DNA from: an uncultured Barnesiella sp.
GTDB lineage: Bacteria; Bacteroidota; Bacteroidia; Bacteroidales; Muribaculaceae
Assembly (NCBI GenBank): GCA_964490275.1
Contig: CAZBBL010000001.1
Coordinates: forward strand, 1-38,901
Direction: 5' to 3'
DNA: 38,901 bases
The first letter of the stretch is position 1; every line of letters begins with the position of its first letter. The notes below the pieces were generated by a model, which was not told the DNA's origin, ran no database searches, and saw nothing but the letters and a program-made list of their open reading frames with translations. Positions 1 through 31,628 of the stretch are shown in pieces. Made by a program: the position numbers and the translations under genes.

Positions 1-146
1 CCTCCTCCACCTCTAACCCCTCCGTCTCCGCCCACCTTTATCCCACCCTGCCCCCATACCACGCTTAAATGACAACACCGCCAAATAGCAACGACCCATC
101 CACTTCCTCATCTCACCACTCCGGCCAAGGCCCTATTGATGATGAG

Positions 147-6017: not shown

Positions 6018-6023
6018 GACCGC

Positions 6024-7076
6024 ATGGCAAAAAAAACATTAATAGTATCTCTACATATTGGAGGTGGCTGTTTTCAATATGGCAATGAGCTTTTTTCGAG
6101 GGTGACGTTTCCCCACGACATATATATTCCAAATGATGTAACAGAGCCGCTTAAAATTAGCGGGTACAAGCAACTGACATATTGGAAGAAGTCGAAACTA
6201 CTCAGAACATTGTCTCTATTGTATTTTCTTGTCCGCATTGTAGTTCTTGGGAACATCGGATATTACGACAAATTAATATTGGCCGGCTACACAACTTGGG
6301 ACTACTATATAATGAAGGCATGGCAGTTAACTCGTCGTCCATCCTACTTTGTTGTTCATGACGGCGTAATGCATACCGGCGAGAACAAAACCAAAACTCA
6401 AAATCGCTTGATTAGCACAATGCGGATGGCTACAAACCTTATTTTCTTAAGCGCATTTGTACGTGACAACCTAAAGCAGCGCTATGAAATTGACAAGCCA
6501 TATATTATTGTCCCGCACGGGTTAATCGACTATGGAGATATCGAGCCATCGTCACAAGTCAAAGTTCCCAACCTGCTCTTTGTAGGCCGTATTGGTGAAT
6601 ATAAAGGCGTTGATATACTGCTCGAAGCAATAAAAAATGTCGACAAATCGCTGTTCAATCGTTTGGTTATCGCCGGACAATGGATTTCAACCGTGCCAAA
6701 GGATATCCCTGAAAAAGTTGAAATTATCAATCAATGGCTCACCAATGACCAAATACGCGATTTTATATCACAGTCTGACGTAATGATATTCCCATACCGC
6801 GAGGCTTCACAATCGGGAGTTGCCACTTTAGCTGTCAGATATGAGAAACCATCCATTGTTTCGAATGTAGGAGCCTTAGCCGAACAATTTCCATGCGGTA
6901 GTGCAATAATTATCAACGACATATCTGCCGACAAACTTAGCTTGGCTATAGAAAATATATGTAGCGATTTATCTTTGCGCAACAAAATGCAGCAAGCCAT
7001 ACGCCAAGGTAAAAACCGTTATGAATGGGACAAAATTGCAGAACAATTCAATCTACAAATGACCGATAAACGATGA
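6024..7076 (+). CDS. Glycosyltransferase family 4
   Basis: LLFVGRIGEYKGVDILLEA; DVMIFPYREASQSGV; IVSNVGAL. Confidence 0.9.
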   Translation: MAKKTLIVSLHIGGGCFQYGNELFSRVTFPHDIYIPNDVTEPLKISGYKQLTYWKKSKLLRTLSLLYFLVRIVVLGNIGYYDKLILAGYTTWDYYIMKAWQLTRRPSYFVVHDGVMHTGENKTKTQNRLISTMRMATNLIFLSAFVRDNLKQRYEIDKPYIIVPHGLIDYGDIEPSSQVKVPNLLFVGRIGEYKGVDILLEAIKNVDKSLFNRLVIAGQWISTVPKDIPEKVEIINQWLTNDQIRDFISQSDVMIFPYREASQSGVATLAVRYEKPSIVSNVGALAEQFPCGSAIIINDISADKLSLAIENICSDLSLRNKMQQAIRQGKNRYEWDKIAEQFNLQMTDKR

Positions 7077-8200
7077 AAATACTGATGTTGACAACGGGGA
7101 CATCGTTAATGGATGGCATCAACCGGCATATACTGACGATTGCACCGGCCATAAATGCTCGCAATGGCTATGAAGTAGCTGTGTGTACGGTAGAGCCTTC
7201 CGGCGAGCTCAACCAAGTCCTCATGCAACATGGCGTCAAGGTATATTCTCTTGGCTACGCCAATGGTCATCGCCCCGGCATATTGCGCAGCTACTACAAG
7301 GTGCTCCGCGACTTCTGCCCCGACATAGTACATCTCCATGTAATGGCAATTATGGAGCGCATCATCTCATCATGCTGCTTCAAACACATAAAATATGTGC
7401 AAACAATCCATGGTATCAGTGACGCAAAACCGGGCAAGCCGAGTTTTAAAAATCGAGTTGAGCAATTTATCACTCGCCACTTTCGCCTACAGATTTCGGC
7501 TCGCTGCTATATCTCAGACGGAGTGCGCCGAGCCTTGAGCCGTGGCGCGACGACCGACGCCATTGAGCAAGTATGTTACAACCCTATCAACTTTGGTGCT
7601 CTACCGCCCAAAAGTCGTCGCTTGCAACAAATTGTCGGTCTTGACCTTGGGACACCAACTATCGGCACGGCCTGTCGCATAGCGTCAGTTAAAAACCCTC
7701 AGGCGTTCACTAAGGTAATGTGCATGGTTCTCAAGGCTATGCCGTCGGCCCACGCCATCGTTATGGGCGATGGCGATGCCGATTTAATCGCTGATTGCAA
7801 GGCAATAATCGACAGTCAAGGTGTCAACGACCGTTTCCATTGGCTCGGATATCGTGCCGATGCTTCTCAGCTGGTCAACGACCTCGATTGCTTCGTAATG
7901 ACAAGTATTTCTGAAGGACTGCCGACATCTGTTCTCGAGTGTATGGCCGTAGAAACTCCGGTAGCTATGCTTCGTGGCAACGGAGGTCTGATTGATATCG
8001 ACATACTCAACCAATCGACTCCTATCGTTGCCATCGCCGACAAAGACGATCACAACGCGTTGGCCTCGCAAATCGTTGAATTGCTCAACAACCCCGAGCA
8101 AGCCCAAACGCAGGCCCGCAACGCCTATGCCGTCGGCAAAGCCAACTTCAGTCTCGAGAGCGTGGCGTCTCAACTATGTTCGCTCTATTCTCAACTCTAA
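7073..8200 (+). CDS. Glycosyltransferase family 4
   Basis: WLGYRAD, DCFVMTSISEGLPTSVLECMA (EX7E motif); ATGA overlap with the upstream stop. Confidence 0.9.
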   Translation: MKILMLTTGTSLMDGINRHILTIAPAINARNGYEVAVCTVEPSGELNQVLMQHGVKVYSLGYANGHRPGILRSYYKVLRDFCPDIVHLHVMAIMERIISSCCFKHIKYVQTIHGISDAKPGKPSFKNRVEQFITRHFRLQISARCYISDGVRRALSRGATTDAIEQVCYNPINFGALPPKSRRLQQIVGLDLGTPTIGTACRIASVKNPQAFTKVMCMVLKAMPSAHAIVMGDGDADLIADCKAIIDSQGVNDRFHWLGYRADASQLVNDLDCFVMTSISEGLPTSVLECMAVETPVAMLRGNGGLIDIDILNQSTPIVAIADKDDHNALASQIVELLNNPEQAQTQARNAYAVGKANFSLESVASQLCSLYSQL

Positions 8201-8694
8201 TGAACAGCATCTCACTCTATTTCGCCAATAAAATAATCAGGCTGCTGCCTGAAACCCGATGTTTCTCGTTTAAGCGATGGCTACTACGCCGAGCCGGCGC
8301 CAATATCGGACAAAATGTGCGTATCTGCTCATCGACATTTATCACCGGAACGGGCCATCTCTCAATCGGCGACAACACGTGGGTAGGCCACAAAACCGTC
8401 ATCGTATGCTCACGTGAGATTAACATCGGCGCGAATATCGACATAGCGCCCATGGTTTATATCGGTGATGGCAGCCACATCATATCCCCCAATGGCTCGC
8501 ATATAGCCGGGGAAGGTATTTCCCGGTCTATCACCATTGAAGATGGTGCCTGGCTTTGTGCCGGGGCCAGACTTCTCCCCGGGATAACCGTCGGAAGCAA
8601 AAGCGTCGTAGGCGCCGGAGCCGTGGTCAACAAATCTATACCGGCCAACACTATTTATGCAGGTGTCCCTGCCAAATTTATCAGAAATGTTTAA
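8200..8694 (+). CDS. Hexapeptide-repeat (LbH) sugar O-acetyltransferase
   Basis: Hexapeptide repeats IGQNVRI/IGDNTWV/IEDGAWL, VVGAGAVV, AGVPAKFIR; start at the TAATG overlap (8200). Confidence 0.88.
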   Translation: MNSISLYFANKIIRLLPETRCFSFKRWLLRRAGANIGQNVRICSSTFITGTGHLSIGDNTWVGHKTVIVCSREINIGANIDIAPMVYIGDGSHIISPNGSHIAGEGISRSITIEDGAWLCAGARLLPGITVGSKSVVGAGAVVNKSIPANTIYAGVPAKFIRNV

Positions 8695-9883
8695 AACACT
8701 AAAAAAATACTCTTTTCTGAGCATACTGACGGCACTAATTGTCGCCAATAACATTATCCAGTTTACGCCATCATTTGATATTGCCTACTATTGTTTTATG
8801 GCTGTGGTTTTATGCATCGTGATTCTTAAAGGTGGCGTAGGCATAAAATCGTGGGCTATGATACTGCTCTATGCATTTTGCGCGTTGAGCATCGTATTCA
8901 ACACCATACCGGTATATTTTAAAGCGCCCTTACGTTTGGTTTCGTTTTTCATAGTAAGTATGGTTGCCGCACCGGGCATCTCGTCAAAATTTATAGATAA
9001 ATTTCGCTGCGACACCTTTACGCTATTACAATATTTTATGGCTATAATGACGCTCATCTCTTTTCCGCTCTACCTAATGGGCATAAATGCGATGGCCTTG
9101 GAATCCAATGGGCAATCGGGTATTACGACACACTCTATGCTGATGGGCCCGGTTGCAGCCAATGCATTTATATTTGCCATCTACAAACTATTAGTCGAAA
9201 AAAAATGGAGAAAAGGCGGTAACGCCAAAATATTCTTCACCACAGTGATGATTATTTCGTTTCCCATGATACTGCTTTCGCGGTCACGCACTACTATCTT
9301 GGCTGCAATTGGTGGACTACTGGTACTACTTGTACTAAAGAGCAAATTCAAAGTATCACGTTTTATGAATATGGCAATATTAATTGTTGCCGTGGGAGCT
9401 TTGACCTACCCTATTTGGGATAAATACACAACCGGAGTGGCCGAAAAGAATGAAGGGTCTATTAATGCTGGTGGCATTACATCTTCACGCGATGCACTTT
9501 GGCAAGATCGAATTGACGAATTTAAAAGCAGCCCGATTATCGGCATTGGATTTGCTTCAGTCGAAAAAGGTTCTGTAGATATGATATACGGCCATGTTGA
9601 AACTGGGAATAGTTGGTTAACGCTTTTATCAATGACAGGGTTGTTAGGATTCATAGCCTTCTTCTTCGTTTTCAAAGGTGCCATTCGACGTATTAAACTA
9701 TATATACTTAAGGCTGATGCACCATCATACTGCTTCGTAGGGGCGTTATTGGCTTTCTATGCAATACACATGATTGCCGAAGGCTATATTTTCGGTGCCG
9801 GCAACTTCCTTTTCTTTAATCTTTGGCTAACGATTGGCGTTATCTATGCCATTCCCAGTGCTAATATGCGAGTTATACCATAG
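8687..9883 (+). CDS. O-antigen polymerase/ligase-family membrane protein (Wzy-like), copy 1
   Basis: About 11 TM segments; LLSRSRT; SRDALWQDRIDEFKSSPIIGIGF; NSWLTLLSMTGLLGF (Wzy_C-like region). Confidence 0.8.
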   Translation: MFKTLKKYSFLSILTALIVANNIIQFTPSFDIAYYCFMAVVLCIVILKGGVGIKSWAMILLYAFCALSIVFNTIPVYFKAPLRLVSFFIVSMVAAPGISSKFIDKFRCDTFTLLQYFMAIMTLISFPLYLMGINAMALESNGQSGITTHSMLMGPVAANAFIFAIYKLLVEKKWRKGGNAKIFFTTVMIISFPMILLSRSRTTILAAIGGLLVLLVLKSKFKVSRFMNMAILIVAVGALTYPIWDKYTTGVAEKNEGSINAGGITSSRDALWQDRIDEFKSSPIIGIGFASVEKGSVDMIYGHVETGNSWLTLLSMTGLLGFIAFFFVFKGAIRRIKLYILKADAPSYCFVGALLAFYAIHMIAEGYIFGAGNFLFFNLWLTIGVIYAIPSANMRVIP

Positions 9884-9915
9884 GTATTTATGTTGTTAAA
9901 TTAAATAGCATAAAA

Positions 9916-12168: not shown

Positions 12169-13287
12169 ATGAAAATACTCCATACCTTAGGCGGATTTAG
12201 CATTGACGGTGGCGGCGGTGTCACCACCTGCACCTACCAGCTACTCAAAGCGCTGCGTGCTCGCGGTGTCGACATCGACGTGCTCGCCCCCAAGCGCCCC
12301 GGCCAACAGATTATCGGTGAGGGTGAGCCTTGGATTAAAACCGTGCCATGCGATTACCGCACACCACTATGCCTGTCGCGCAACCTCAAGGAGTTTCTCG
12401 CTGAGTCAGACTACGATATCTACCACTCCAACGGCTTGTGGATGCACATCAATCATATCACTCCCAAAATAGCCCGTGCCAAAAAGCGTCCCTACATCAT
12501 ATCGCCCCACGGCATGCTGTTTCCCGAAGCCTTGCATCGCAGCTACGCCAAAAAGTGGCCGCTGATAAAGCTTTGGTTTGGCAACGATATAGCTCGCGCT
12601 ACCACAATCCACGCCACCTGTCAAAGCGAAGCCGACGCCGTCGGCGCCTTTGGCTACCATGGCCGCATCGACATAATACCAAACCTCACCGTAATCCCCG
12701 ACTATACCTCGCAAATCTACGCCGCAAAGTCGGCAACAATGGCTCGCGAGCCTCGACATATCGGTTTCTTGGGCCGTTTGCATCCCCGTAAAGGCATAGA
12801 TTTACTCATCCAAGGCCTTGCCATGAGCGGCAGCGGCAGCTCTATGCAACTCGACATCATCGGCATGGGCGAGCAATCCTATGTCGATTCGCTCAAGAAG
12901 CTCGCCTCAGACCTCGGCCTCGCCGACAACGTCAACTTCGTAGGCTTTGTCGACGGACGCGCCAAGTTTGAAGCCCTCGCTCGGCTATCTGCGCTTTTCG
13001 TGCCGAGCGACTTCGAAAACTTCGGCATGATTGTGCCCGAAGCCCTCGTAGTCGGCACCCCCGTCATGGCCTCGACCGGCACCCCCTGGCAAGAGCTCAA
13101 CGACAGAGATTGCGGATGGTGGCGCGACCGCTCAGCCCGCTCTATTGCCGAAGTGATCGACACCGTTGCCGCTATGACCAACAATCAACTCTGCGCCATG
13201 GGCAGCCGCGGACGCGACCTCGTGTTGCAAAAATACTCTGCCGACGCCATCGCCGGGCAATTTATCGACCTCTACAACTCTCTCTGA
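12169..13287 (+). CDS. Glycosyltransferase family 4
   Basis: PYIISPHGML; FLGRLHPRKGIDLL; PSDFENFGMIVPEALVVGTPV; start at ATG 12169. Confidence 0.9.
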   Translation: MKILHTLGGFSIDGGGGVTTCTYQLLKALRARGVDIDVLAPKRPGQQIIGEGEPWIKTVPCDYRTPLCLSRNLKEFLAESDYDIYHSNGLWMHINHITPKIARAKKRPYIISPHGMLFPEALHRSYAKKWPLIKLWFGNDIARATTIHATCQSEADAVGAFGYHGRIDIIPNLTVIPDYTSQIYAAKSATMAREPRHIGFLGRLHPRKGIDLLIQGLAMSGSGSSMQLDIIGMGEQSYVDSLKKLASDLGLADNVNFVGFVDGRAKFEALARLSALFVPSDFENFGMIVPEALVVGTPVMASTGTPWQELNDRDCGWWRDRSARSIAEVIDTVAAMTNNQLCAMGSRGRDLVLQKYSADAIAGQFIDLYNSL

Positions 13288-13300
13288 CACTCTCACTATA

Positions 13301-13840
13301 ATGGACGACCTCTCAAACTACCACGAAGAGAAGCCCCACCTGGCCAAACGCATCCTCTGGCGAATAGTCAATGCCACGCTGTTCCGACTCTTTTCCGGAG
13401 TTTATTGCCGCAACATACGCCGTTGGCTGCTCGTAATTTTCGGCGCAAAAATAAGCCGTGGCTCACTCGTCTACGCCAACTGCTCGATTTTCGCCCCGTG
13501 GAACCTCTCCATAGGCCGAGGCGCATGCATCGGCCCCCACACCACTCTCTTCTGCAAAGCGCCAATCACCATCGGCGACAACACCGTCATCTCTCAAGGC
13601 ACATACCTTTGCACCGGCTCTCACGACATCTCCTCGCTGATGCTGCCGATTAAAAATCGGCCCATCACCATCGGCAACAACGTCTGGGTTGCCTCCGAAG
13701 CCTTCGTTGGCCCCGGCGTCACCATCGGCGACGGCGCCGTCGTCGCTGCACGAGCCGCAGTCTTCGACGATGTAGCCCCGTGGAGCGTAGTGCGCGGCAA
13801 CCCCGCCACAGTCATCAAACAACGCATCATCAAACCCTAA
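13301..13840 (+). CDS. WcaF-like LbH acetyltransferase, copy 1
   Basis: IFAPWNLSIG, ISQGTYLCTGSHD, GPGVTIGDGAVVAARAAV, GNPA. Confidence 0.9.
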   Translation: MDDLSNYHEEKPHLAKRILWRIVNATLFRLFSGVYCRNIRRWLLVIFGAKISRGSLVYANCSIFAPWNLSIGRGACIGPHTTLFCKAPITIGDNTVISQGTYLCTGSHDISSLMLPIKNRPITIGNNVWVASEAFVGPGVTIGDGAVVAARAAVFDDVAPWSVVRGNPATVIKQRIIKP

Positions 13841-13852
13841 CCCTGCACTCTT

Positions 13853-14743
13853 ATGCTCGACCTTACCGTCATCATCCTCACCAAAAACGAGCAAATACAT
13901 ATCCAACGTGCCATCGACAACGTCAAGCCTATAGCTCGGCGTATCATCATCGTCGACAGCGAATCTACCGACGACACGTGTGCGATAGCCGGTGCAGCCG
14001 GTGCCGAAGTTGTAGTGCACCAATGGCCCGGCAACCAAGCCGCACAATTCAATTGGGCTATCGACAACCTCGACATCACCACCCGCTGGATACTCCGCAT
14101 CGACGCCGACGAATGGCTCTCTGACCAACTCAAAGAGGAGATGACTGAAAAGCTGCCAACCATGGCCGACGACGTCTCAGCCATCACACTCCAATTGGGA
14201 CGTTACTTTTTAGGGCGCCGTCTACGGCACGGCATAATCAACACCGTCGCCGTCGCTCGCATATTCCGCACAGGCCGCGTCCGCTACGAAAACCGCCTCA
14301 TGGACGAGCATATCAACATACTCAGCGGCACTACAGCCACATTCCGCCACAAATTATACGACGACAACCGCCGACCGCTCTCCGACTTCATCAAGAAACA
14401 CGACAACTACGCCCTGCGCGAAGCCGCTACGCTGCTCAACCAGCGCTACTGTTTCTCAGTCGACCAAGTTGGCGAACTCGCCAAAGAAGCAAAAGCCAAA
14501 CGCCGACAGAAATCGCGCTATAGCCGCATGCCTCTGCTTTGGCGCGCCTTTGGCTACTTCTGCTATCGCTACTTCCTGCGCTTGGGATTTCTCGACGGTC
14601 GCGAAGGCTTCCTTTGGGACTTTCTCCAAGGCTTCTGGTATCGCACGCTGGTCGATGCAAAGCTCATCGAAATACAAAAAGCTTGTGGCGACGACCCTCA
14701 AGCCATACGCGAGCACCTCGCCTCTTTAGACATAAAATTTTAG
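13853..14743 (+). CDS. Glycosyltransferase family 2
   Basis: IILTKNE, VDSESTDDT, WILRIDADE (DXD), LGFLDGREG. Confidence 0.9.
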   Translation: MLDLTVIILTKNEQIHIQRAIDNVKPIARRIIIVDSESTDDTCAIAGAAGAEVVVHQWPGNQAAQFNWAIDNLDITTRWILRIDADEWLSDQLKEEMTEKLPTMADDVSAITLQLGRYFLGRRLRHGIINTVAVARIFRTGRVRYENRLMDEHINILSGTTATFRHKLYDDNRRPLSDFIKKHDNYALREAATLLNQRYCFSVDQVGELAKEAKAKRRQKSRYSRMPLLWRAFGYFCYRYFLRLGFLDGREGFLWDFLQGFWYRTLVDAKLIEIQKACGDDPQAIREHLASLDIKF

Positions 14744-15924: not shown

Positions 15925-16710
15925 ATGAAAATTTCAATCGTTACGGCAGCCTACAACTCGGCCGGCACCATCGCTGACACCATCAAAAGCGTGCTCAGCC
16001 AAACTCATGCCGATTGGGAACACATCATCGTCGACGGCGCCTCTACCGACGCTACCGTCGAGATTGTAAAATCATTCTCCGACCGCTACAACGGACGCCT
16101 TCGCCTCATCAGCGAACCCGACCACGGCATCTACGATGCCATGAACAAAGGCCTCGCAGCCGCCTCGGGCGACATCGTCGGCATCCTCAACTCCGACGAC
16201 TTCTTCACACGCAACAACGTGCTCCAACGTATCGTCGACGCCTTCAACTCCGACGCCAACATCGATGCCGTCTATGGCGACATCATGTACACCGACCCGA
16301 CCGACACTTCGCGCATCGTACGCTACTACAGCTCCGACGCCTTCCGACGCTGGAAAATGAGAATGGGCTTCATGCCCGCCCACCCTTCATTCTATTGTCG
16401 CCGACAGCTCTACGAAACTCATGGCGACTTCGACACAAGCTTCAAAGTGGCCGCCGACTTCGAAAACCTCTTGCGCATCATCTACGTAGGCAAAGCTCGC
16501 TGCAAATACTTGCCAATGAACTTCGTCACCATGCGCTCGGGAGGTGCCTCAACATCGGGCCTCACCTCTCATCGCTCAATCCTCAACGACCATATACGCG
16601 CCTACCGCAAAAACCACGTCCGCTCGGGCTACATGTTCGACCTACTTCGCTACCCCTACAAAGTGGCCGAACTCGTCTCTTTCCGGCTCCACTCTCACCG
16701 TAATGATTGA
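15925..16710 (+). CDS. Glycosyltransferase family 2 (WcaE/WfgS-like)
   Basis: MKISIVT, VDGASTD, SEPDHGIYDAMNKG, ILNSDD, MPAHPSF. Confidence 0.92.
   Translation: MKISIVTAAYNSAGTIADTIKSVLSQTHADWEHIIVDGASTDATVEIVKSFSDRYNGRLRLISEPDHGIYDAMNKGLAAASGDIVGILNSDDFFTRNNVLQRIVDAFNSDANIDAVYGDIMYTDPTDTSRIVRYYSSDAFRRWKMRMGFMPAHPSFYCRRQLYETHGDFDTSFKVAADFENLLRIIYVGKARCKYLPMNFVTMRSGGASTSGLTSHRSILNDHIRAYRKNHVRSGYMFDLLRYPYKVAELVSFRLHSHRND
16677..16705 (+). repeat. Left copy of a 29-bp direct repeat (inside the GT2 3' end)
   Basis: CTCTTTCCGGCTCCACTCTCACCGTAATG; matches 23828-23856 at 27/29 positions. Confidence 0.92.
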
Positions 16711-16739
16711 CAATACAAATCTCTCTACAAATATTTGCT

Positions 16740-17291
16740 ATGCAACCATCAAAATCATCTAAATATCAAAACCACCTCAGCTTCAAGCACAAGCTCATAC
16801 GCTTGCTATGGGCCATCACATGGACGCTATTAGCGCGGTGGATTCCTCGACAAGTAGGCAATGGATGGAAACGATTTCTATTGAGATTGTTTGGCGCCAA
16901 AATAGCTTCTACGGCCGGCATCCACAATTCGGCTCGTATATACTATCCGCCCAATCTCATAATGGGCAAAAATGCTTGCATAGCCTCTAAGGTCAATTGT
17001 TATAACGTAGCCCCGGTAATAATACACGACAACGTTACAGTGTCGCAATACACCTATCTTTGCACAGCCTCTCACGATATAAGCTCTAAGGATCATACGC
17101 TTATCACCGCACCAATAATCATCGAAGATGAAGCTTGGGTGGCCGCAGATGCCTACATCGGCATGGGTGTTACCATTGGCAAAGGTGCTGTCGTCGGTGC
17201 CAGAGCCGCCGTTTTTAAAGACGTAGCCCCATGGACAGTCGTCGGGGGCAATCCGGCAAAATTCATCAAACTACGCAAAATTTTATCATAA
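16740..17291 (+). CDS. WcaF-like LbH acetyltransferase, copy 2
   Basis: VSQYTYLCTASHD, GVTIGKGAVVGARAAVFKDVAPWTVVGGNPA; ATG 16740 preferred over TTG 16707. Confidence 0.9.
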   Translation: MQPSKSSKYQNHLSFKHKLIRLLWAITWTLLARWIPRQVGNGWKRFLLRLFGAKIASTAGIHNSARIYYPPNLIMGKNACIASKVNCYNVAPVIIHDNVTVSQYTYLCTASHDISSKDHTLITAPIIIEDEAWVAADAYIGMGVTIGKGAVVGARAAVFKDVAPWTVVGGNPAKFIKLRKILS

Positions 17292-17297
17292 AATACA

Positions 17298-18239
17298 ATG
17301 AAAGCTTTTCTATTTCCAGGCCAAGGCACTCAAAAAGAGCATATGGGGAAAGATCTTTACGACAATTTCCCAAAAGCCAAAGCCATATTTGAAATAGCTA
17401 ACGACATCCTCGGCGAACGATTCAGTGATATCCTATTTTCCGCTAATGAGGATTTACTCATGGATACTCGCTATACGCAAATGGGCATTTTTATTTATGA
17501 GGTTGCCGTCGCTATGTCTCAAACCGATATCGTGCCTGATTTCACCGCCGGACACTCGCTTGGTGAATACGCCGCTCTTGTAGTCGCAGGCGCTCTATCA
17601 TTTGAGGAAACAATACCCTTCATCAAGACACGTGGGCAGGTATTTTACGAAGCATTCCAGAAACACCCCAGCGCTATGGGCGCAATCATTGGTATCGCCG
17701 AAGAACAAGTGCAGCAAGTACTCAACAGAGTGAGCGATGAGGATGGCGAGAATCTTTACATTGCCAACTACAACGGCCCCGGCCAGTTAGTCGTGACCGG
17801 AGGCCGCGCTTCTGTAAAAAAAGCCTGCAAAATATTGAAAGAGCAAGGAGCTAAACGTGCTCTCGTATTACCACAAAAAGGTGTCGGCCACTCCCCAAAT
17901 TCGGTTGAAGAAGGACGGATCCTCGGCCAAGAACTCATGAAACTTACTTGGCACACGCCTCGCATACCGGTTTATCAAGATGCAGACGGATTGCCTCATA
18001 CCGACCCCAATGAGCTGCTAGAAAACGAAATAAAGTTGATGACTTATCCTGTTCAATGGACAGACATCACCAACAACATGGCAAAAGACGGCGTGCGCGA
18101 ATTCTATGAATGTGGCACTGACGATACACTGCAAAAAATCGTAAGGCGTATGTATCCTAATTTAAAAGTCGATTCTATCGTCAACGTCCCATCATACAAA
18201 GGCATTGTCAGAGACTATTCATTCAAGCCTGAGCTATAA
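17298..18239 (+). CDS. fabD: Malonyl-CoA:ACP transacylase-like acyltransferase (cassette copy)
   Basis: FPGQG, catalytic GHSLG, ANYNGPGQLVV; second motif is GVGHS rather than GAFHS. Confidence 0.88.
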   Translation: MKAFLFPGQGTQKEHMGKDLYDNFPKAKAIFEIANDILGERFSDILFSANEDLLMDTRYTQMGIFIYEVAVAMSQTDIVPDFTAGHSLGEYAALVVAGALSFEETIPFIKTRGQVFYEAFQKHPSAMGAIIGIAEEQVQQVLNRVSDEDGENLYIANYNGPGQLVVTGGRASVKKACKILKEQGAKRALVLPQKGVGHSPNSVEEGRILGQELMKLTWHTPRIPVYQDADGLPHTDPNELLENEIKLMTYPVQWTDITNNMAKDGVREFYECGTDDTLQKIVRRMYPNLKVDSIVNVPSYKGIVRDYSFKPEL

Positions 18240-18277
18240 ATAATAAACATTTTACAAATCTATAAAAATTTTTATCT

Positions 18278-18505
18278 ATGACATTAGACCAATTTGTGGC
18301 AAGATTTGCCGAAGAATTTGAAGAAACACCCCAGGACCTTTTTACTGCCGACGCTCAGTTCAAAAGCTTCGAAGAATGGAGCTCGCTGACCGCCCTTTCA
18401 ATCATCGCTATGGTTGATGACGAATTCGACAAAAGTCTCACCGGTGCAGACATACGCAATTGCACCACAATAGAAGATTTGTACAATCTCGTTCAAAGTA
18501 AATAA
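18278..18505 (+). CDS. Acyl carrier protein
   Basis: 75 aa, acidic; EWSSL (variant of the DSL phosphopantetheine-attachment motif); TIEDLY tail. Confidence 0.88.
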   Translation: MTLDQFVARFAEEFEETPQDLFTADAQFKSFEEWSSLTALSIIAMVDDEFDKSLTGADIRNCTTIEDLYNLVQSK

Positions 18506-19263
18506 TGGCATACAATCCTTTTTCTCTTGAAGGTAAAACCATCCTCATTACGGGAGCCTCGTCCGGCATCGGACGAGGCATTGCCGTAGAGTGCTCTAAA
18601 TTGGGAGCTACATTGATCATTAATGGCCGTGATAATCAACGATTATCCGAAACAATATCTATGCTTGAAGGCGTCGGACACCAATCTGTCGTGGCCGACT
18701 TATCTAATCAAGAAGGGATTGACACTCTTATTGATGCCTGCCCTCAACTCAATGGTATTGTTCACAGCGCCGGAATCCCTAAAATTTGCCCTGTCAAAAA
18801 CATTAAGCGTGAGTTAATCGAAGAAATAATCAATGTCAACGAAATCGCCCCAATCCTTCTGACATCCGGACTTCTCAAAAAAAAGAAGGTCCTAAAGGGA
18901 TCTTCTATCGTCTTCATTGCATCAATCTCGGGAGTTTTTATCGCGAATACAGGAGAAGCTCCTTATTCAGCGACAAAAGGCGCTTTAGCCGGATTCGCCA
19001 AAACAGCAGCATTTGAATTAGCTACACTCGGTACTCGAGTCAATACTATTTGTCCGGGCCTCGTCCCCACCAATATCCTGAATTTAAGCAATACCATCTT
19101 CTCAAAAGAACAACTCGAAGAAACCATGTATGGACGTTATCCGCTTAAACGCGTAGGCACACCTGAAGATATAGCCTACGGAGCAATCTACTTACTGTCT
19201 GATGCTTCATCATGGGTAACCGGTACCAATCTTTTAATTGACGGTGGTTACTGTCTAATGTAA
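18505..19263 (+). CDS. SDR oxidoreductase (FabG-like ketoacyl reductase)
   Basis: TGASSGIG, YSATK (YxxxK), RVNTICPG, IDGG; TAATG coupling to the ACP gene. Confidence 0.9.
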   Translation: MAYNPFSLEGKTILITGASSGIGRGIAVECSKLGATLIINGRDNQRLSETISMLEGVGHQSVVADLSNQEGIDTLIDACPQLNGIVHSAGIPKICPVKNIKRELIEEIINVNEIAPILLTSGLLKKKKVLKGSSIVFIASISGVFIANTGEAPYSATKGALAGFAKTAAFELATLGTRVNTICPGLVPTNILNLSNTIFSKEQLEETMYGRYPLKRVGTPEDIAYGAIYLLSDASSWVTGTNLLIDGGYCLM

Positions 19264-19271
19264 TTTTTGTT

Positions 19272-20324
19272 ATGGCCCTTTTAAAATTCAAAGATATAGG
19301 TATTAAAGCCATAAGCGCTACCGTACCACATACTATAGTAAAGACCGACTCCCTAACTGACTATTACTCTAAGGAGGAGCTCGACAAATTTATCGCTGCC
19401 ACCGGCGTTGAGCAACGGCGTTTTGCCGACAAAGATGTTTGTGCTTCTGACCTTTGCGAAAAGTCAGCCTTACAAATCTTTAATGAGACCTCTATCGCTC
19501 GTTCAGATATTGATGCGCTGTTTTTTATTAGCCAAAGTCCTGACTATAAAATTCCGGGCACATCTGTTATTCTTCAGCACAAACTCGGTTTAAGCAAAGA
19601 CATAATCGTATATGATGTAAATATGTCTTGTTCCGGCTTTATACACGGGTTGTTAATGGCTTACTCTTTTCTCCAACATCCCGACATAAACAATGTTATG
19701 ATTATGGTCGGAGAGACATTATCTCATATGATTTCACTACAAGATAAAGGCACCGGCAAGCTCTTGGGCGATGCCGGCACTGTAGCTGTAATCGGGAAAG
19801 GGCAACAGTTTGGCGAAAGCTTCTTCTCAATGAATAGCGATGGCTCAAATCTTAATTCGGTTATTCTCCCTGCCGGGGGGGGTAGAATACCTTCTTCTGA
19901 AGAGACTCTAAAAATGACCAAGCATGAAGATGGCTCGATTCGTAGCCTCGAACAAATTAATATGGTCGGCGAAGACGTGTTTAGCTTCGCCATTTCAGTC
20001 CTACCCAAAGATATAAAGAAGCTACTTGCCTTTGCCAATAAAGGAATCGATGAAATTGACGTTTATGCCTTTCACCAAGCAAATAATTTTATGTCTAATT
20101 ATATCGCTAAGAAGGCAAAAGCAAATCCCGACAAAATACTCCACTCAATTCAAAAATATGGCAATACAGCCGGCACTTCTATACCACTTTGTATGGTTGA
20201 AAATCGCGACAAAATTCATATAAACAATTCTGTACTGATGAATGCCATCGGAGCAGGATTTGCCTATGGCACAGTATTGATAAACATCGCCGATTGTCAA
20301 ATACTTCCCTTATCTGAAATGTAA
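19272..20324 (+). CDS. 3-oxoacyl-ACP synthase III family protein (FabH-like), copy 1
   Basis: Triad Cys (MSCSG), His (FHQAN), Asn (YGNT); LGDAG; GAGF. Confidence 0.9.
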   Translation: MALLKFKDIGIKAISATVPHTIVKTDSLTDYYSKEELDKFIAATGVEQRRFADKDVCASDLCEKSALQIFNETSIARSDIDALFFISQSPDYKIPGTSVILQHKLGLSKDIIVYDVNMSCSGFIHGLLMAYSFLQHPDINNVMIMVGETLSHMISLQDKGTGKLLGDAGTVAVIGKGQQFGESFFSMNSDGSNLNSVILPAGGGRIPSSEETLKMTKHEDGSIRSLEQINMVGEDVFSFAISVLPKDIKKLLAFANKGIDEIDVYAFHQANNFMSNYIAKKAKANPDKILHSIQKYGNTAGTSIPLCMVENRDKIHINNSVLMNAIGAGFAYGTVLINIADCQILPLSEM

Positions 20325-20325
20325 T

Positions 20326-21327
20326 ATGCACGCATATATTAAAGCATTATCCTATTACCTACCATCCGCTATTTTGGATAATGAAACTATTGCCAATGAA
20401 TTCCCTGAATGGTCTGTTGAAAAAATCGACAAAAAAATTGGAATCTCAAAACGTCATATCGCGGCTGATGGTGAAACCGCCAGCGACTTAGCTATTGGAG
20501 CAGCCGAAAAACTGTTTGTCGATTATTCAGTCAATAGAGCTGAGATTGACTACCTTATCTTTGTCACTCAAAGCCCCGACTATCACCTTCCTACAACAGC
20601 CTGTACAATTCAGAAACGTCTTGGCCTAAGTTTTAATATCGTTGCCATAGATGTCGCTCTCGGATGCTCCGGATTTGTCACCGGCCTTTCGTTAGCAAAA
20701 GCAGTTATTTTAGCCGGGCAAGCCAAAAACGTACTATTGCTCACTGCTGAAACTTATTCCAAATATATGCATCCCAAAGATAAGAGCAACCGCACCATCT
20801 TTGGCGATGGGGCTGCTGCGACCCTAATTAGTACTGATGGCTTTGCAAAGATAGGCAACTTCATTATCGGGACAGATGGGAATGGCGCAGAAAATCTAAT
20901 CGTAAAATCAGGATGTGCTCGCTATCCCAAGCCACTAAACGACCTTTCGTTTGATGAGTATGGAAATCCTCATTCGTCAGACTATTTATACATGGATGGC
21001 CCTGCGATACTCAACTACTCCATCGAGAGCATACCTCGTCTCGTATCTAATGTATTATCGGCAAACGGTTTATGCTTAGACGATATCGATTTACATGTAT
21101 ACCATCAAGCCAATTTATTTCTCGCTAAGCTCGAGCGTAAGAAGCTCAAAATAGCCCCTGAAAAATACTATGTAAACATTACAAATGTTGGCAACACCGT
21201 GTCGTCTACAATTCCTATTGCGCTATGCCTGGCATTAGAAGACGGCTCGTTGCGCAAAGGCATGAAAGTTCTTTCAGTTGCTCAAGGTTTAGGATATACT
21301 TGGGGTGGAATGGTATTATATTTCTAA
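20326..21327 (+). CDS. 3-oxoacyl-ACP synthase III family protein (FabH-like), copy 2
   Basis: Triad Cys (LGCSG), His (YHQAN), Asn (VGNT); IFGDGAAA; GLGYTWG. Confidence 0.9.
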   Translation: MHAYIKALSYYLPSAILDNETIANEFPEWSVEKIDKKIGISKRHIAADGETASDLAIGAAEKLFVDYSVNRAEIDYLIFVTQSPDYHLPTTACTIQKRLGLSFNIVAIDVALGCSGFVTGLSLAKAVILAGQAKNVLLLTAETYSKYMHPKDKSNRTIFGDGAAATLISTDGFAKIGNFIIGTDGNGAENLIVKSGCARYPKPLNDLSFDEYGNPHSSDYLYMDGPAILNYSIESIPRLVSNVLSANGLCLDDIDLHVYHQANLFLAKLERKKLKIAPEKYYVNITNVGNTVSSTIPIALCLALEDGSLRKGMKVLSVAQGLGYTWGGMVLYF

Positions 21328-21329
21328 GC

Positions 21330-21944
21330 ATGATACATATCGAAAGATTCATTAACGAATTGATGTCATCAAACTGTTACATTGTTTGGGACGATGAAAT
21401 TCACAGATGCATCATTATCGACCCGGCGAGCGAATTCTCGACAAGAGAAATCGAATTTATATATAATCAACAGCTCACACTTGATTATATCATTCTGACA
21501 CACGAGCACACAGATCACACTTGGGGCGTAAATGCTCTTTTATCAAAATTCAATGCTAAGGTTATTAGCACCAATGAATGCAAAAACAATCTTCCTAATG
21601 CCGGGAATGCATACTTTAAGCTCTATTACGAACGAGACAACTATTCTTACCAAGTCAGACGAGTTGACATTACTGCCGAACAACTCGCATGGAACTTGGT
21701 TTGGGGAGACCATACAATCAAATTAATCGACACTAAAGGTCACAGCATGGGGTCTATGTGTATCGACATCGACAACATGCTTTTCTCGGGTGACACCATT
21801 ATGCAATACAAACCCTATATCAACAAGCATAATGGCAGCAAAAAGCTTTATCAAGAAAGTGTTGATTTGATATTAAGCTTATATCACGGTGATACTATGA
21901 TTTATCCCGGACACGGCAAACCGTTCCTACTAAAAGACCGATAA
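21330..21944 (+). CDS. Metallo-beta-lactamase-fold hydrolase (glyoxalase II-like)
   Basis: THEHTDH (HxHxDH), GHSMGS, FSGD, PGHG; start at ATG 21330. Confidence 0.9.
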   Translation: MIHIERFINELMSSNCYIVWDDEIHRCIIIDPASEFSTREIEFIYNQQLTLDYIILTHEHTDHTWGVNALLSKFNAKVISTNECKNNLPNAGNAYFKLYYERDNYSYQVRRVDITAEQLAWNLVWGDHTIKLIDTKGHSMGSMCIDIDNMLFSGDTIMQYKPYINKHNGSKKLYQESVDLILSLYHGDTMIYPGHGKPFLLKDR

Positions 21945-23035
21945 TGATCAATTTCTACAACCTTACATTCAAAGAATTAATTCACGGAGCCAATATTAAC
22001 TTTTCAGACCCCTACCACATCGCTTCGTCATTATGCCCCGAAATGAAAGATGCTCTATTGCATAATCCTTCAGGCTTTCAGCCAGACGAAGTTTGTCAAA
22101 TCTTGGCTTTAGACGATGACACTGTCATTGGATGCACCAACCCATATAGCGGACGCATAAAAATCGATGGCGAAATTAGTATCGTGCAAAACGGTTCCTA
22201 CTTGTTTGCCCACGAAGGCTACCGCAAGGAAAACATTGGTGGCGAACTATTTATGACCATATCAAGCATTCATCCATCAAAGAAATGTTATTTCTCAGGC
22301 ATCTCCCACATGGCCATGGGACTATACCACGCCTTGAAATACACCATTTTTGAGTATCCGCGCATGATATATCTCAAAAATTGCAAAAGCGTGGTCAAAT
22401 CATTATTCCACACCCAAAGCGATATTGTGATGCCAATCGTTTGGATTGGGAACGCAGCTCTATGGCTACACCGCTATATCTTACGACTAAGCAACCGCCT
22501 TTGTCGCAACGATTATACAATCAAGCAGGTCGATTCAGTGCCACAAGATGTTATTGATATTGTCAACGCCGACGCTCACCCATTCACCGAATATCACGAC
22601 CGCGAATGGTTTGAATGGTGCTTAAAATATAAATTCACCGAACAGCCACGCATAAAACGTCTTTTCTTGATAAAGAAGGGCAACAAAACCGAAGGCTTCT
22701 TTCTTACAAAAGAGCAATTCTACGAGCAAGCAAGTGGCCGCGGTTTTAAAAACGTCACCCTCGGTTCTGTAATGGAATGGGGTATCGCCTCCGACTCTCA
22801 GCTATCTGAAAAAGACATCTATCTACTTGCCATTGACAGCTTCAGCCCAGACGTAGACGGCATCGTTTATGCTACAACCGATAAAACGATCTCACATAGT
22901 CTACGCAAGTGGCTGTTTATCGGCATCGGTACCGCCAATGCTGCTTTTAAATTTAAAGGCAACAAGGATCCCCGTTTGAAAGATATTAACAATTGGCGCA
23001 TACGTTTAGCCGCCAGCGATACTCTTCTCAACTAA
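21944..23035 (+). CDS. Uncharacterised protein, probable GNAT-fold acyltransferase
   Basis: LFAHEGYRKENIGGEL resembles GNAT motif A; later HDREWFEW resembles the second lobe of tandem-GNAT proteins. The fold call is inference. TAATG coupling to the upstream gene. Confidence 0.55.
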   Translation: MINFYNLTFKELIHGANINFSDPYHIASSLCPEMKDALLHNPSGFQPDEVCQILALDDDTVIGCTNPYSGRIKIDGEISIVQNGSYLFAHEGYRKENIGGELFMTISSIHPSKKCYFSGISHMAMGLYHALKYTIFEYPRMIYLKNCKSVVKSLFHTQSDIVMPIVWIGNAALWLHRYILRLSNRLCRNDYTIKQVDSVPQDVIDIVNADAHPFTEYHDREWFEWCLKYKFTEQPRIKRLFLIKKGNKTEGFFLTKEQFYEQASGRGFKNVTLGSVMEWGIASDSQLSEKDIYLLAIDSFSPDVDGIVYATTDKTISHSLRKWLFIGIGTANAAFKFKGNKDPRLKDINNWRIRLAASDTLLN

Positions 23036-23038
23036 ATT

Positions 23039-23827
23039 ATGAAAGTAATTCTGCACGCCGACGATTTCGGCTTCAATCAAGATACTCTCGACGCCACTAT
23101 CGAATGCTTTAAACTTGGCGCCCTATCGAGCTGCTCTATAATGGCAAATTGCGAATCCTCTAAAGCTGCTTTCGACTTCGCCCGTCGCAATCCGCAATTT
23201 AGCTATGGCGTACACCTGGTTTATGTCGACAACCTCAAGCCAATACTAGCTCCCGACAAAATACCATCCCTCGTCAATGACCAAGGCACATTCCTCCCCT
23301 CCAACGATGTCCGAAAAGCTGCACTCCTCCATAAACTGTCAATTAAGCAAATTATAGCCGAGTCTCAGGCTCAAATCGACCTCGTTAAAAGTGCCGGTAT
23401 CGATTTGACACACCTCGACAGTCACGGCCATCTACATAAATTTCCATCTATTTCAGGTGCATTTAAGCAACTAAACATAAATGGCTTACCAATTAGACGA
23501 GTACGTGGCGTACAAAATATCTTTATCAAGCAACCAAGCAAAACATCTCCCAACTATTGGCTCAACAAATACTTCAAGCACAATCTATCCCGCAACTTCC
23601 ACAATCCCGACTACTTCTATATGAGCGCCCATAACATGGATATCGGTTGGGCCGACTCTATTCTATCCATTATGAACCGTCTACCCGACAACGCAACAAT
23701 TGAAATTGGCATCCATCCAGGCAAATCTGAGCGATGGCGGCAATACGAGTTCGCCGACATTATCGACTTCTCAACCAAGCTACGACAAGAAGGTATACAC
23801 AAAATCATTTCTTGGAAGGACATCTAA
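23039..23827 (+). CDS. YdjC/ChbG-family carbohydrate deacetylase
   Basis: HADDFG, GVHL, HLDSHGHLH, EIGIHPG. Confidence 0.88.
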   Translation: MKVILHADDFGFNQDTLDATIECFKLGALSSCSIMANCESSKAAFDFARRNPQFSYGVHLVYVDNLKPILAPDKIPSLVNDQGTFLPSNDVRKAALLHKLSIKQIIAESQAQIDLVKSAGIDLTHLDSHGHLHKFPSISGAFKQLNINGLPIRRVRGVQNIFIKQPSKTSPNYWLNKYFKHNLSRNFHNPDYFYMSAHNMDIGWADSILSIMNRLPDNATIEIGIHPGKSERWRQYEFADIIDFSTKLRQEGIHKIISWKDI

Positions 23828-23856
23828 CTCTTTCCGACTCCACTCTCATCGTAATG
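23828..23856 (+). repeat. Right copy of the 29-bp direct repeat (starts right after the YdjC stop, ends on the GT4 ATG)
   Basis: CTCTTTCCGACTCCACTCTCATCGTAATG; 27/29 identical to 16677-16705. Confidence 0.92.
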
Positions 23857-25035
23857 GATAGTCGTAAGCTTAACATACTGTTTATAATGGGGCGCTATCC
23901 CAATGTCGGCGGCGTCGAAAGCGTGTCGACACTGCTGGCCAACCGGCTGGCTGCTCGCGGCCATAGCGTCTCAATCGTATCGTTTGAGCAACCGATGCCA
24001 CAACTCGCTGCCAAAGAGCTCAACCCGGCAGTGAAGCTCTATAGCCTCAAATTTCCGGTGAAACTCCGCAGCAACCTTCAAGAGTTCAGAGACATCCTCC
24101 GCCAAGAGCATACCGATATCATCATCAACCAATGGGCCTTGCCTTGGTATGTCAATCGCTTCATCAATCGCGCTCGTCGCGGCACCAACTGCCGCCTCGT
24201 CAGCGTGCTCCACAACAAGCCCGACGGCAACACGCGCATCCAAGGCGCCGACATGGCTATCAAAGCCCGCAACGGGTTTCTCCCGCTGCTACGCCTGAAA
24301 AAATGGGCTGCGACCACCGCCACTCGGCTGTCGCTGCGCTATGTCTATCGCCACAGCGATTGGTTTACGGTGTTGTCTGACAGTTTCGTCCCCATATTTA
24401 AGCAGTTTATCCACGACAACGACGGCTCTCGATTGTCGGCTCTGGGCAACCCGCTCTGCATCGCCCAGACCTCCTCAATCCGCCCGATAGCCGAGCGCAA
24501 CGGCTTTATCTATGTAGGTCGAGTCGAAGAAAATCAAAAACGTGTGTCGCGCTTGGTCGACATCTGGCAGCTATTGCTCGCCGCCAACCCGGCACGCCAC
24601 CTCACCATCGTCGGCGACGGCCCCGACCTCGACTCACTGAAAAAACAGTTTGCCCAACGACGGCTCACAAACGTAGAGTTTGTCGGATATGCCGACCCGG
24701 CGCCCTACTACGACCATGCCTCGATACTTTTGATGGTATCGCAATACGAAGGCTTTGGCCTCGTCATCATCGAAGCCATGAGCCGTGGCGTAGTGCCCGT
24801 AGTGCTCAATTCGTTTACGGCTTGCGCCGACGTCATCCCCAACGGCAGCGTCGGTCTAAAAATACCAACCCCCTTCGAGGCAACGGCGTTTGCCGACGCC
24901 ATCAACCGCCTCGAGGCCGACCCCTCTCAGCTCCAAGCCATGTCTACCGACGCCATAGAGTGGTCAAAACAATTCTCGCCCGACGCTATCACCGACCGTT
25001 GGCTCGAGCTTTTCAACCGGCTGCTTAATGCCTAA
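23854..25035 (+). CDS. Glycosyltransferase family 4
   Basis: GGVE, YVGRVEENQKRV, IVGDGPD, SQYEGFGLVIIEAMSRG; start at ATG 23854. Confidence 0.9.
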   Translation: MDSRKLNILFIMGRYPNVGGVESVSTLLANRLAARGHSVSIVSFEQPMPQLAAKELNPAVKLYSLKFPVKLRSNLQEFRDILRQEHTDIIINQWALPWYVNRFINRARRGTNCRLVSVLHNKPDGNTRIQGADMAIKARNGFLPLLRLKKWAATTATRLSLRYVYRHSDWFTVLSDSFVPIFKQFIHDNDGSRLSALGNPLCIAQTSSIRPIAERNGFIYVGRVEENQKRVSRLVDIWQLLLAANPARHLTIVGDGPDLDSLKKQFAQRRLTNVEFVGYADPAPYYDHASILLMVSQYEGFGLVIIEAMSRGVVPVVLNSFTACADVIPNGSVGLKIPTPFEATAFADAINRLEADPSQLQAMSTDAIEWSKQFSPDAITDRWLELFNRLLNA

Positions 25036-31408: not shown

Positions 31409-31587
31409 GTAGGGCGAAATTTATTTTCGTTGACGCATCCACTATTAATGAAGCCGTCGTCGCCAGACAAAGATACCGCCATGTTTGTAGGGGCGAAATT
31501 CATTTCGCCCGCCACCATCAAACGCCTATAATCCAAACTATTATCGTCGCTCACGCGACTCTCGGGCGAAATAAATCACGCCCCTAC
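31409..31587. repeat. GTAG-type REP-like palindromes: one degenerate copy plus an inverted pair
   Basis: 31409 GTAGGGCGAAATTTATTTTCG; 31487-31511 GTAGGGGCGAAATTCATTTCGCCCG; 31563-31587 reverse complement GTAGGGGCGTGATTTATTTCGCCCG (22/25 identical to the previous copy). Confidence 0.75.
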
Positions 31588-31628
31588 ATCATGGCCGCAA
31601 GTCTTATGCGACTTGCGGCCATGGCGAT

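Follow-up and report, generated by a model that had tools for sequence, protein, structure and literature searches.

Islands such as e14 at icd integrate at the 3′ end of a gene and restore it. According to the accessible part of Furuta, Abe, & Kobayashi (2010; PMC2853133), integration of genomic islands at gene 3′ ends, with tRNA genes among the cases, is carried out by a tyrosine recombinase and leaves the gene restored. The same part of that paper describes insertion with long target duplication, in which an insert of less than 20 kb carrying restriction-modification genes and no mobility gene lies between unique, near-identical direct repeats of more than 30 bp, and an empty site is present in another strain; the target is an operon-like structure and the repeat extends across a translation stop and start, so that the target genes remain intact. 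No Bacteroidota species is named among the cases given there. With regard to cargo, the closest described system is the R1 gene group, wfpC-wfpG, of the Flavobacterium psychrophilum O-polysaccharide locus. In the available text of Cisar et al. (2019; PMC6519341), wfpC-F (an ACP, two KAS, and one reductase) are proposed to make a 3,5-dihydroxyhexanoyl group and a PglD homologue acylates UDP-Qui2NAc4NH2; the R1 genes are strain-variable, and strains differing in them differ antigenically. Polysaccharide loci of the Bacteroidales are very diverse and horizontally exchanged, as stated in the section available from PMC3090145.

In this study, we analysed a 38,901-nt stretch of DNA (the window) from an uncultured Barnesiella sp., and we propose, with a probability of roughly two thirds, that a nine-gene, 7.1-kb block predicted to act in hydroxyacyl synthesis and attachment entered a single time, probably with no dedicated recombinase involved, where the stop of a GT2 gene overlaps the start of a GT4 gene, leaving a 29-bp duplication (Table 1). 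We found no description of this cassette, or of a scar of this kind in Bacteroidales capsule loci, in the open-access literature. The locus resembles the cases presented in the accessible part of PMC2853133 in the size of the insert (7,151 bp), in the lack of a mobility gene, in the unique near-identical direct repeat, in the operon-like target with the repeat across stop and start, and in the empty site, which is here inferred from proteins only. It differs from them in that the duplication measures 29 bp where more than 30 bp is required, and in that the insert holds no restriction-modification genes but genes for polysaccharide acylation. With the 3′-end islands it shares the duplicated gene end and the whole target gene; unlike them, it lacks an integrase within or next to the insert, shows no dyad symmetry, and is ragged at one end.

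Table 1. Features of the insertion locus (positions are those of the window)
Feature	Position	Strand	Remarks
Degenerate third copy of 16-nt repeat core	13288..13303	+	Between resident GT4e stop and wcaF1 ATG; 14/16 versus left copy
Resident GT2 glycosyltransferase	15925..16710	+	PF00535, E 1e-29; HRND* here, HRNG* in other cluster members P0141-P0144
Left 29-bp repeat	16677..16705	+	GT2 tail plus copy of GT4 start codon
Insert left end, ragged	16706..16742	+	TGA closing GT2, then QYKSLYKYLL running into wcaF2 start
wcaF2, WcaF-like hexapeptide O-acyl/acetyltransferase	16740..17291	+	NF007797, E 3e-47, below its cut-off
FabD-like malonyl-CoA:ACP transacylase	17298..18239	+	GHSLG intact; 42% identity to housekeeping fabD at 36446
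Dedicated acyl carrier protein	18278..18505	+	PF00550
FabG-like SDR ketoreductase	18505..19263	+	GxxxGIG and YxxxK intact
FabH-like KAS III no. 1	19272..20324	+	Cys-His-Asn motifs; 83% identity to Bacteroides sp. HGM04668 gene
FabH-like KAS III no. 2	20326..21327	+	Cys-His-Asn motifs; NF006829 above cut-off
Metallo-beta-lactamase-fold (MBL) hydrolase, candidate thioesterase	21330..21944	+	PF00753; HEHTDH; start codon uncertain
Tandem-GNAT protein, N-myristoyltransferase-like fold, candidate N-acyltransferase	21944..23035	+	Fold; 363-aa gene
YdjC-family carbohydrate deacetylase	23039..23827	+	PF04794, E 1e-42; stop codon is the insert's final base
Right 29-bp repeat	23828..23856	+	Displaced GT2 tail overlapping GT4 ATG; X4 contig crosses it
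Resident GT4 glycosyltransferase, downstream partner of empty junction	23854..25035	+	PF00534; 6-member cluster

The repeat pair reported in the initial annotation is real, its coordinates, identity (27 of 29 bases), and spacing (7,151 bp) all being confirmed. As was also described there, the left copy codes for SFRLHSHRN(D*), the tail of GT2; the right copy begins flush with the TAA of ydjC (23827), holds the GT4 ATG (23854), and translates as SFRLHSHRNG* in the frame of GT2; and both mismatches between the copies are synonymous in that frame. No other pair of 29-mers with at most two mismatches occurs in the whole window, none of 30 order-4 Markov shuffles yielded a comparable pair, and the suggested genome search revealed no third full copy, nor any additional one at up to seven mismatches in the 1.97-Mb assembly (80.7% complete). 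The similarity of the copies stops sharply at both sides of the 29 bp, and their longest uninterrupted identity is 11 bp. Dyad symmetry is absent from the repeat, as is any internal palindrome of at least 6 bp, and in the 60-nt windows round each copy the single self-complementary word of at least 6 nt is a 6-mer in the GT4 start, beyond the repeat. Among 40 relatives, a GT2 orthologue was found in 12 and a GT4 orthologue in one (42%), where gene order is different; one of the GT2 orthologues, 71-72% identical and the final gene of its locus, ends in SFRLHMHRN*, so the tail of GT2 is a conserved coding stretch.

The key prediction of the initial annotation, an intact empty allele, was borne out at the protein level. 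The remaining members of the GT2 protein cluster all end in HRNG (4/4, from 11 contig sightings, possibly in few samples), which is the product expected of an empty site or of loop-out. Eight of the nine cassette proteins were found, and all eight are singletons; of the 15 non-cassette proteins found, 14 have 3-10 cluster members and one (GT4b) is a singleton. For wzy2, GT4e, wcaF1, GT2a, acyltransferase-3, GT2, GT4, GT2c, and GT8, which lie on both sides of the cassette, the longest contigs of the members measure 73,679 and 50,482 bp, and the members are placed on a common contig solely by equal contig size. The HRNG strains form a sister lineage whose flank proteins differ mostly by 1-7% in amino acids. 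Because every other GT2 member ends in HRNG and every cassette protein found is a singleton, it is likely that the sister strains are without the nine cassette genes and that an intact empty allele exists; the same two observations support the earlier proposal that a nine-gene module entered the junction of an ancestral coupled GT2-GT4 pair with duplication of the gene tail. Exact pattern scans for empty-site DNA of metagenome contigs and viral contigs, collections from which near-identical records may be missing, gave no match, and a GT4 protein scan returned two remote loci only (28% identity).

The nine cassette genes were confirmed by Pfam/NCBIfam, save the 363-aa gene, which was assigned by fold. 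By itself this tandem-GNAT protein has no Pfam match, weak GNAT matches being found in 8 of its 42 homologues; its AlphaFold model (pLDDT 93) has N-myristoyltransferases as top Foldseek matches (E ~1e-12, TM ~0.55). The cassette contains no promoter of the Bacteroidota type, and no convincing terminator was found. Its GC content is 42.8%, compared with 53.9% and 52.7% in the flanks and 50.7% in the genome, so that the lower GC noticed in the initial annotation is a real contrast, though smaller than its hand-picked lines implied. GC3 is 0.39-0.49 for the cassette genes versus 0.55-0.73 for the ten flank genes closest to them. Positions 1-9900, at the 5′ end of the locus, are likewise GC-poor (45.8%), and thus the cassette is not singled out by low GC alone.

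The genes fabD-ACP-fabG-fabH-fabH-MBL-GNAT-ydjC occur in the same order in the uncultured Bacteroides sp. HGM04668 (NZ_CAAFEE010000373.1), with 58-83% amino-acid identity and inside a related GT4-wcaF-GT2-GT2 locus. That block differs in that wcaF follows ydjC, whereas here it precedes fabD, and in that no repeat brackets it. Partial versions are present in a Mediterranea sp. and in genome G802, and bracketing target repeats were absent from the 13 loci with related modules that were examined. A ~65-bp repeat round the G802 module was rejected as a parallel, having three copies in that genome and adjoining a transposase-like fragment, presumably IS66-like. Among 400 own-family genomes we found no close fabH1 (E 1e-110) and no close GNAT, with a single remote GNAT match (28%); the module was found neither in 400 order-level genomes nor in viral contigs, and plasmids gave one fabH1 match only (33%). 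From these distributions the cassette appears to be of foreign origin. Homologues of wcaF2 are present in 13 of 200 own-family genomes (57-71% identity), and the homologues nearest to it are own-family ones, yet it falls inside no starred clade.

The peptide QYKSLYKYLL at the left end of the insert is likely the remnant of a donor GT4 C-terminus: against a profile of 10 GT4 tails, an equal or higher score was reached by 0 of 5000 shuffles and by 0.24% of random cassette windows, in what was a post hoc finding. On a second reading, the 35-nt leader may be an old wcaF N-terminus beginning at the ATG of the repeat. It seems that donor DNA from another polysaccharide locus, of the order GT4′-wcaF-module, could have been joined in through template switching or the repair of a break, with the tail of the donor GT4 as the site of the left joint and the ydjC stop as that of the right one. 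A circular intermediate, considered in view of wcaF preceding fabD here and following ydjC in the HGM04668 and Mediterranea blocks, was set aside since the GT4-tail remnant implies a native GT4′-wcaF order in the donor and since wcaF2 is nearest to own-family homologues. The TGA now closing GT2 ends it at the same codon position as in the empty allele. The insertion would have been retained because GT2 regained its stop there and because the start of GT4 and the 26 bases before it were preserved, and for the same reason the new genes are likely carried on the operon transcript. It is likely that neither neighbouring gene was broken, and a switchable module is less fitting.

The 29-mer could instead be an att-like site for a tyrosine recombinase acting in trans, in which case the block would be a reversible plug-in and the three gene starts with the CACTCTCA..TAATG core would carry a reused docking site; we regard this as unlikely. 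Both neighbouring genes are intact, as such a site would have it, and the repeat is below 30 bp, a range set aside by Furuta et al. as typical of site-specific recombination in the accessible part of their paper (PMC2853133). Genome-wide, the 16-nt core has three matches at up to two mismatches, all within this locus (0.07 expected in the window); each ends on a start codon, and two, the third copy among them, head a wcaF-led block. In line with the initial annotation, the window ORFs scanned include no tyrosine or serine recombinase, and the nine cassette genes hold no integrase or transposase; the source genome holds three PF00589 genes, two of them integrase-like and one of XerC/D size, all on other contigs, so that action in trans is possible, and no PF00239 or PF07508 match was found in the 80.7%-complete genome. 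Only five runs hold the stretch, all at low share (0.10-0.15), and a contig of one of them, X1, terminates exactly at 16705, the end of the left repeat, which could reflect both alleles coexisting in one sample. The contigs of these runs, at a depth of 2-10 too thin to test excision, contain no joint or circle, and in a second comparison nothing covered the right repeat. Against such a site, the four genes between the third and left copies are present in the empty-site lineage. The term att-like, used in the initial annotation, is at odds with the missing dyad symmetry, with perfect identity over 11 bp only, and with an insert that begins within a donor GT4 tail and not at a defined element end; this ragged end and the related modules without bracketing target repeats also speak against a plug-in or removable module. 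On these sequence features, a single insertion that needed no recombinase and duplicated its target is favoured over a removable cassette, and within this lineage the old and fixed state, offered as an alternative in the initial annotation, fits better than a plug-in. The one-off event leaves the third core copy at 13288 without explanation. That the core is a docking site at which Bacteroidales stack and drop whole polysaccharide-decoration modules with the operon unbroken, integrase-free or driven in trans and still polymorphic in populations, is a quite improbable suggestion; if true, it would amount to a cassette system for capsule chemistry.

We also doubt strongly that the species has long been in the filled state, with the present empty alleles arising secondarily via loop-out between the copies. 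Loop-out would yield exactly the HRNG product, and variation among runs is of similar extent in the cassette and in the flanks (~1.3% versus 2.0% by hand tally of 32 of 304 pieces, the junction-spanning piece excluded), indicating that the cassette is not very recent. Nevertheless, since the left copy includes the GT4 ATG, the insertion still had to come first, and cassette GC3 has not drifted toward the host value. RecA-type recombination needs roughly 20-30 bp of perfect identity, more than the 11 bp available, and loop-out would be harmless though expected rare. Chance similarity or mis-assembly is very improbable, for although the metagenome-assembled genome is fragmented (192 contigs, 80.7% complete) and no contig among the matches listed crosses the left junction, the window is free of N characters, the shuffles produced no such repeat, the 151-nt X4 contig (23782-23932, three differences) extends 46 and 76 nt to either side of the right junction, pieces of the cassette and of its flanks co-occur in four runs from four studies, and the other GT2 alleles end as loop-out predicts.

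Returning to the inserted block, its predicted product is a small hydroxyacyl group on a surface polysaccharide. FabD would put malonyl onto the ACP, FabG and the pair of FabH enzymes may produce a 3-hydroxy- or 3,5-dihydroxy-acyl-ACP, YdjC may deacetylate an N-acetylated sugar and so expose its amine, the chain would be transferred by the tandem-GNAT protein, or by WcaF2 in the case of O-acylation, and the MBL-fold protein might edit the ACP. Set beside the F. psychrophilum genes in the available text of PMC6519341, the locus likewise has a dedicated ACP, two KAS III, and a ketoreductase, with catalytic motifs present, inside a polysaccharide locus. In contrast to the R1 genes, it has FabD, the MBL hydrolase, the tandem-GNAT protein, YdjC, and WcaF, and the block was added to an otherwise unchanged operon in which the scar is still visible. 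The cassette holds no PglD-type transferase, its hexapeptide protein being WcaF-like rather than NeuD/PglD-like, and with regard to linked 4-amino-sugar synthesis (PglE/PglF) no DegT aminotransferase was found among the window ORFs scanned, the locus start lying beyond the contig edge; hence the acceptor sugar and the chain are putative. Two strong DegT genes are present elsewhere in the genome (contigs C69 and C11).

Since both the type of scar and the kind of cargo are known, what is gained is one clean case, together with a tandem-GNAT family of ~80 proteins that is uncharacterised, and not a new principle. The step that adds a single module to a polysaccharide locus is seldom caught, and here one can see the scar, what is likely the empty allele, and a relative of the module from another family. 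The filled and empty strains may thus offer a natural near-isogenic pair for learning what the FabD/ACP/FabH/GNAT/YdjC block puts on the capsule and whether this alters recognition by antibodies or phages.

In this analysis we show that the nine-gene acyl block between GT2 and GT4 is bracketed by a 29-bp direct repeat, as the initial annotation had claimed. The two copies share 27/29 bases at a spacing of 7,151 bp, their similarity stops at both ends, no comparable 29-bp pair occurs elsewhere in the window, the genome contains no further copy at up to seven mismatches, and a comparable repeat was yielded by none of 30 Markov shuffles. The left copy forms the 3' end of the GT2 gene; the right copy directly abuts the ydjC stop on one side and runs into the GT4 start on the other, and both mismatches between the copies are synonymous in the GT2 frame. 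Moreover, GC content is 42.8% in the cassette against 53.9% and 52.7% in its flanks; the locus is likewise GC-poor (45.8%) in its 5' part. We favor, with a probability of about 0.68, one insertion event, without a recombinase and through break repair or template switching, that was retained because both neighboring genes were unharmed.

The window covers the 3' portion of a Wzy-type polysaccharide locus, followed by housekeeping genes. The locus encodes a putative flippase (lacking a Pfam match), a pyruvyl transferase, GT4 and GT2 glycosyltransferases, two Wzy-like proteins, acyltransferases and a GT8, and a DUF4831 match is also present in the window; together with the homologous loci in Bacteroides and Mediterranea, this match points to a Bacteroidales genome. 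The cassette genes lie on the same strand with intergenic gaps below 40 nt, in the order wcaF2, fabD, ACP, fabG, fabH, fabH, MBL hydrolase, a gene encoding 363 aa, and ydjC. FabD, FabG, the two FabH enzymes, YdjC and the MBL protein carry their catalytic motifs. The 363-aa product has some 80 homologues and a confident predicted model (pLDDT 93) with a tandem-GNAT fold, closest to N-myristoyltransferases (TM ~0.55).

Positions of features in the window and in two comparison loci
Feature	Position	Remark
5' part of locus	1-9900
Protein with two FGE-sulfatase-like domains	1691-3721	Secreted-looking, 676 aa, between putative flippase and pyruvyl transferase; unusual cargo in a capsule locus
GT4b	6024-7076	GC3 low (0.41)
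Third copy of repeat core	13288-13303	Between resident GT4e stop and wcaF1 (resident copy) start; ends on wcaF1 ATG
GT2a	13853-14743
GT2 gene	15925-16710
Left repeat copy	16677-16705
Right repeat copy	23828-23856
Contig spanning right junction	23782-23932
GT4 start	23854
Palindromic REP-like repeat (TGTAGGGGCGAAAT...)	31486-31588	3' of adk; dispersed family with many genomic copies, including contigs C3, C19, C129 and C137
49-bp direct repeat, polysaccharide locus L039 (G952:C30)	15085 and 16763 (reversed locus)	Spacing 1,678 bp
Repeat around related acyl module, locus L035 (G802)	1190-1255 / 12609-12673	Not a target duplication; three-copy insertion-sequence end remnant

Loop-out between the repeat copies predicts a GT2 product ending HRNG, and the other members of the GT2 90% cluster (n = 5) end SFRLHSHRNG in 4/4 cases, on 11 contigs behind which there are possibly few samples. 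Exact protein look-ups found 23 of 30 queries (8 cassette, 15 non-cassette). Each of the eight cassette proteins found was a singleton, seen only on the contig of the window; no exact match was obtained for the MBL protein under two start guesses, for one alternative wcaF2 start or for four further non-cassette proteins. Clusters of 3-10 members were obtained for 14 of the 15 non-cassette proteins. The exception is GT4b, a singleton whose neighbors, where found, have three members each; no repeat was found flanking its ends, and it is possibly a second lineage-specific gene. For genes on either side of the site, cluster members have longest contigs of 73,679 and 50,482 bp, and we infer that these contigs carry GT2 joined straight to GT4. 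DNA searches of metagenome and viral contigs, collections that may leave out near-identical records, gave no match to the GT2-GT4 junction itself. The HRNG strains represent a sister lineage, since their flank proteins mostly differ from the window by 1-7% of residues. GT2a differs from four sister-lineage alleles by a dense cluster of changes at residues 112-134, resembling a patch recombined in from a divergent donor. For proteins of the locus's 5' part, cluster members are listed on a 28,009-bp contig but not on those of 73,679 and 50,482 bp; therefore this upstream block may also vary by strain.

It was also proposed that the cassette is a removable module. A reversible element driven in trans seems improbable to us. 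The genome does encode three PF00589 proteins, each outside this contig, and nothing matching a serine recombinase. The longest perfect identity within the repeat is 11 bp, and dyad symmetry is absent from it. One contig from X1, a sequencing run matching the window, stops precisely at 16705, which may fit a filled/empty branch or a chance end at low depth. Among the contigs listed from the runs none joins the flanks past the cassette; a narrower mapping had no cover at the right repeat. The insertion and the empty allele are well supported, if indirectly, whereas removability is unsupported.

Somewhat less probable still is that the empty alleles arose by secondary loop-out, which would give the same HRNG ending. 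The duplicated unit holds the GT4 ATG, and therefore the GT2-GT4 overlap predates the duplication. The GT2 tail is genuine coding sequence, as the orthologue in genome G007, the last gene of its locus, ends SFRLHMHRN*. An artefact is very improbable, with cassette and flank pieces both covered by contigs of four runs from four studies (divergence ~1.3% in the cassette and ~2.0% in the flanks, from a hand tally of 32 of 304 pieces omitting the junction-spanning one) and one contig spanning the right junction.

Returning to a single insertion, the right end of the insert is the ydjC stop, and its left end provides the GT2 stop at the codon used in the empty allele, followed by QYKSLYKYLL. The insert likely starts within a donor gene, because this peptide resembles the C-termini of GT4 genes commonly upstream of wcaF in the window's own family; although spotted post hoc, its score against a profile of 10 such tails was equalled by 0/5000 shuffles and, among random cassette windows, by 0.24%. 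A module scan across genomes gave three loci from 20 candidates. Bacteroides sp. HGM04668 has the identical fabD-to-ydjC order (58-83% identity), followed by wcaF-GT2-GT2 and with no bracketing repeat, and Mediterranea carries the module in shuffled order. A fabH1 homologue occurs in 10/400 further Bacteroidaceae genomes; the nine loci examined are ACP-fabH-fabG blocks, mainly amid polysaccharide genes, with no target repeats. In the window's own family, close fabH1 was found in 0/400 genomes and a remote GNAT homologue in 1/400, whereas wcaF2 shares 57-71% identity with genes in 13/200. For this reason the donor was probably an own-family relative with a previously acquired Bacteroidaceae-type module.

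The insertion works like those with long target duplication described by Furuta et al. (PMC2853133), where repeats likewise span stop and start codons; since a 29-bp repeat and the lack of RM genes here place it outside their formal criteria, we class it as a variant. In the open-access literature we found neither the cassette described nor a scar of this type in a capsule locus of Bacteroidales. Strain diversity of Bacteroidales polysaccharide loci has been ascribed to transposons, phage and transfer (PMC3090145), and the term direct repeat is absent from the portion of that paper available. In L039, the 49-bp repeat is a duplication of an acyltransferase-like gene's 5' end and possibly a similar scar. 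The 16-nt repeat core (CACTCTCA..TAATG) recurs with two mismatches upstream of wcaF1; only three matches exist genome-wide, all within the locus (0.07 expected in the window). This copy could mark an earlier insertion ahead of the same GT4 start, could be a site that was used again, or could stem from the region's C-rich spacers; the four genes it would delimit are present in the empty-site lineage.

With regard to function, the block would likely build a short hydroxyacyl chain on its dedicated ACP, and the chain may then be transferred to a sugar amine exposed by YdjC or to a hydroxyl via WcaF2. The predicted hydroxyacyl product has a precedent in Flavobacterium psychrophilum, where wfpC-F are the proposed makers of a 3,5-dihydroxyhexanoyl group and have been linked to antigenic differences (PMC6519341).
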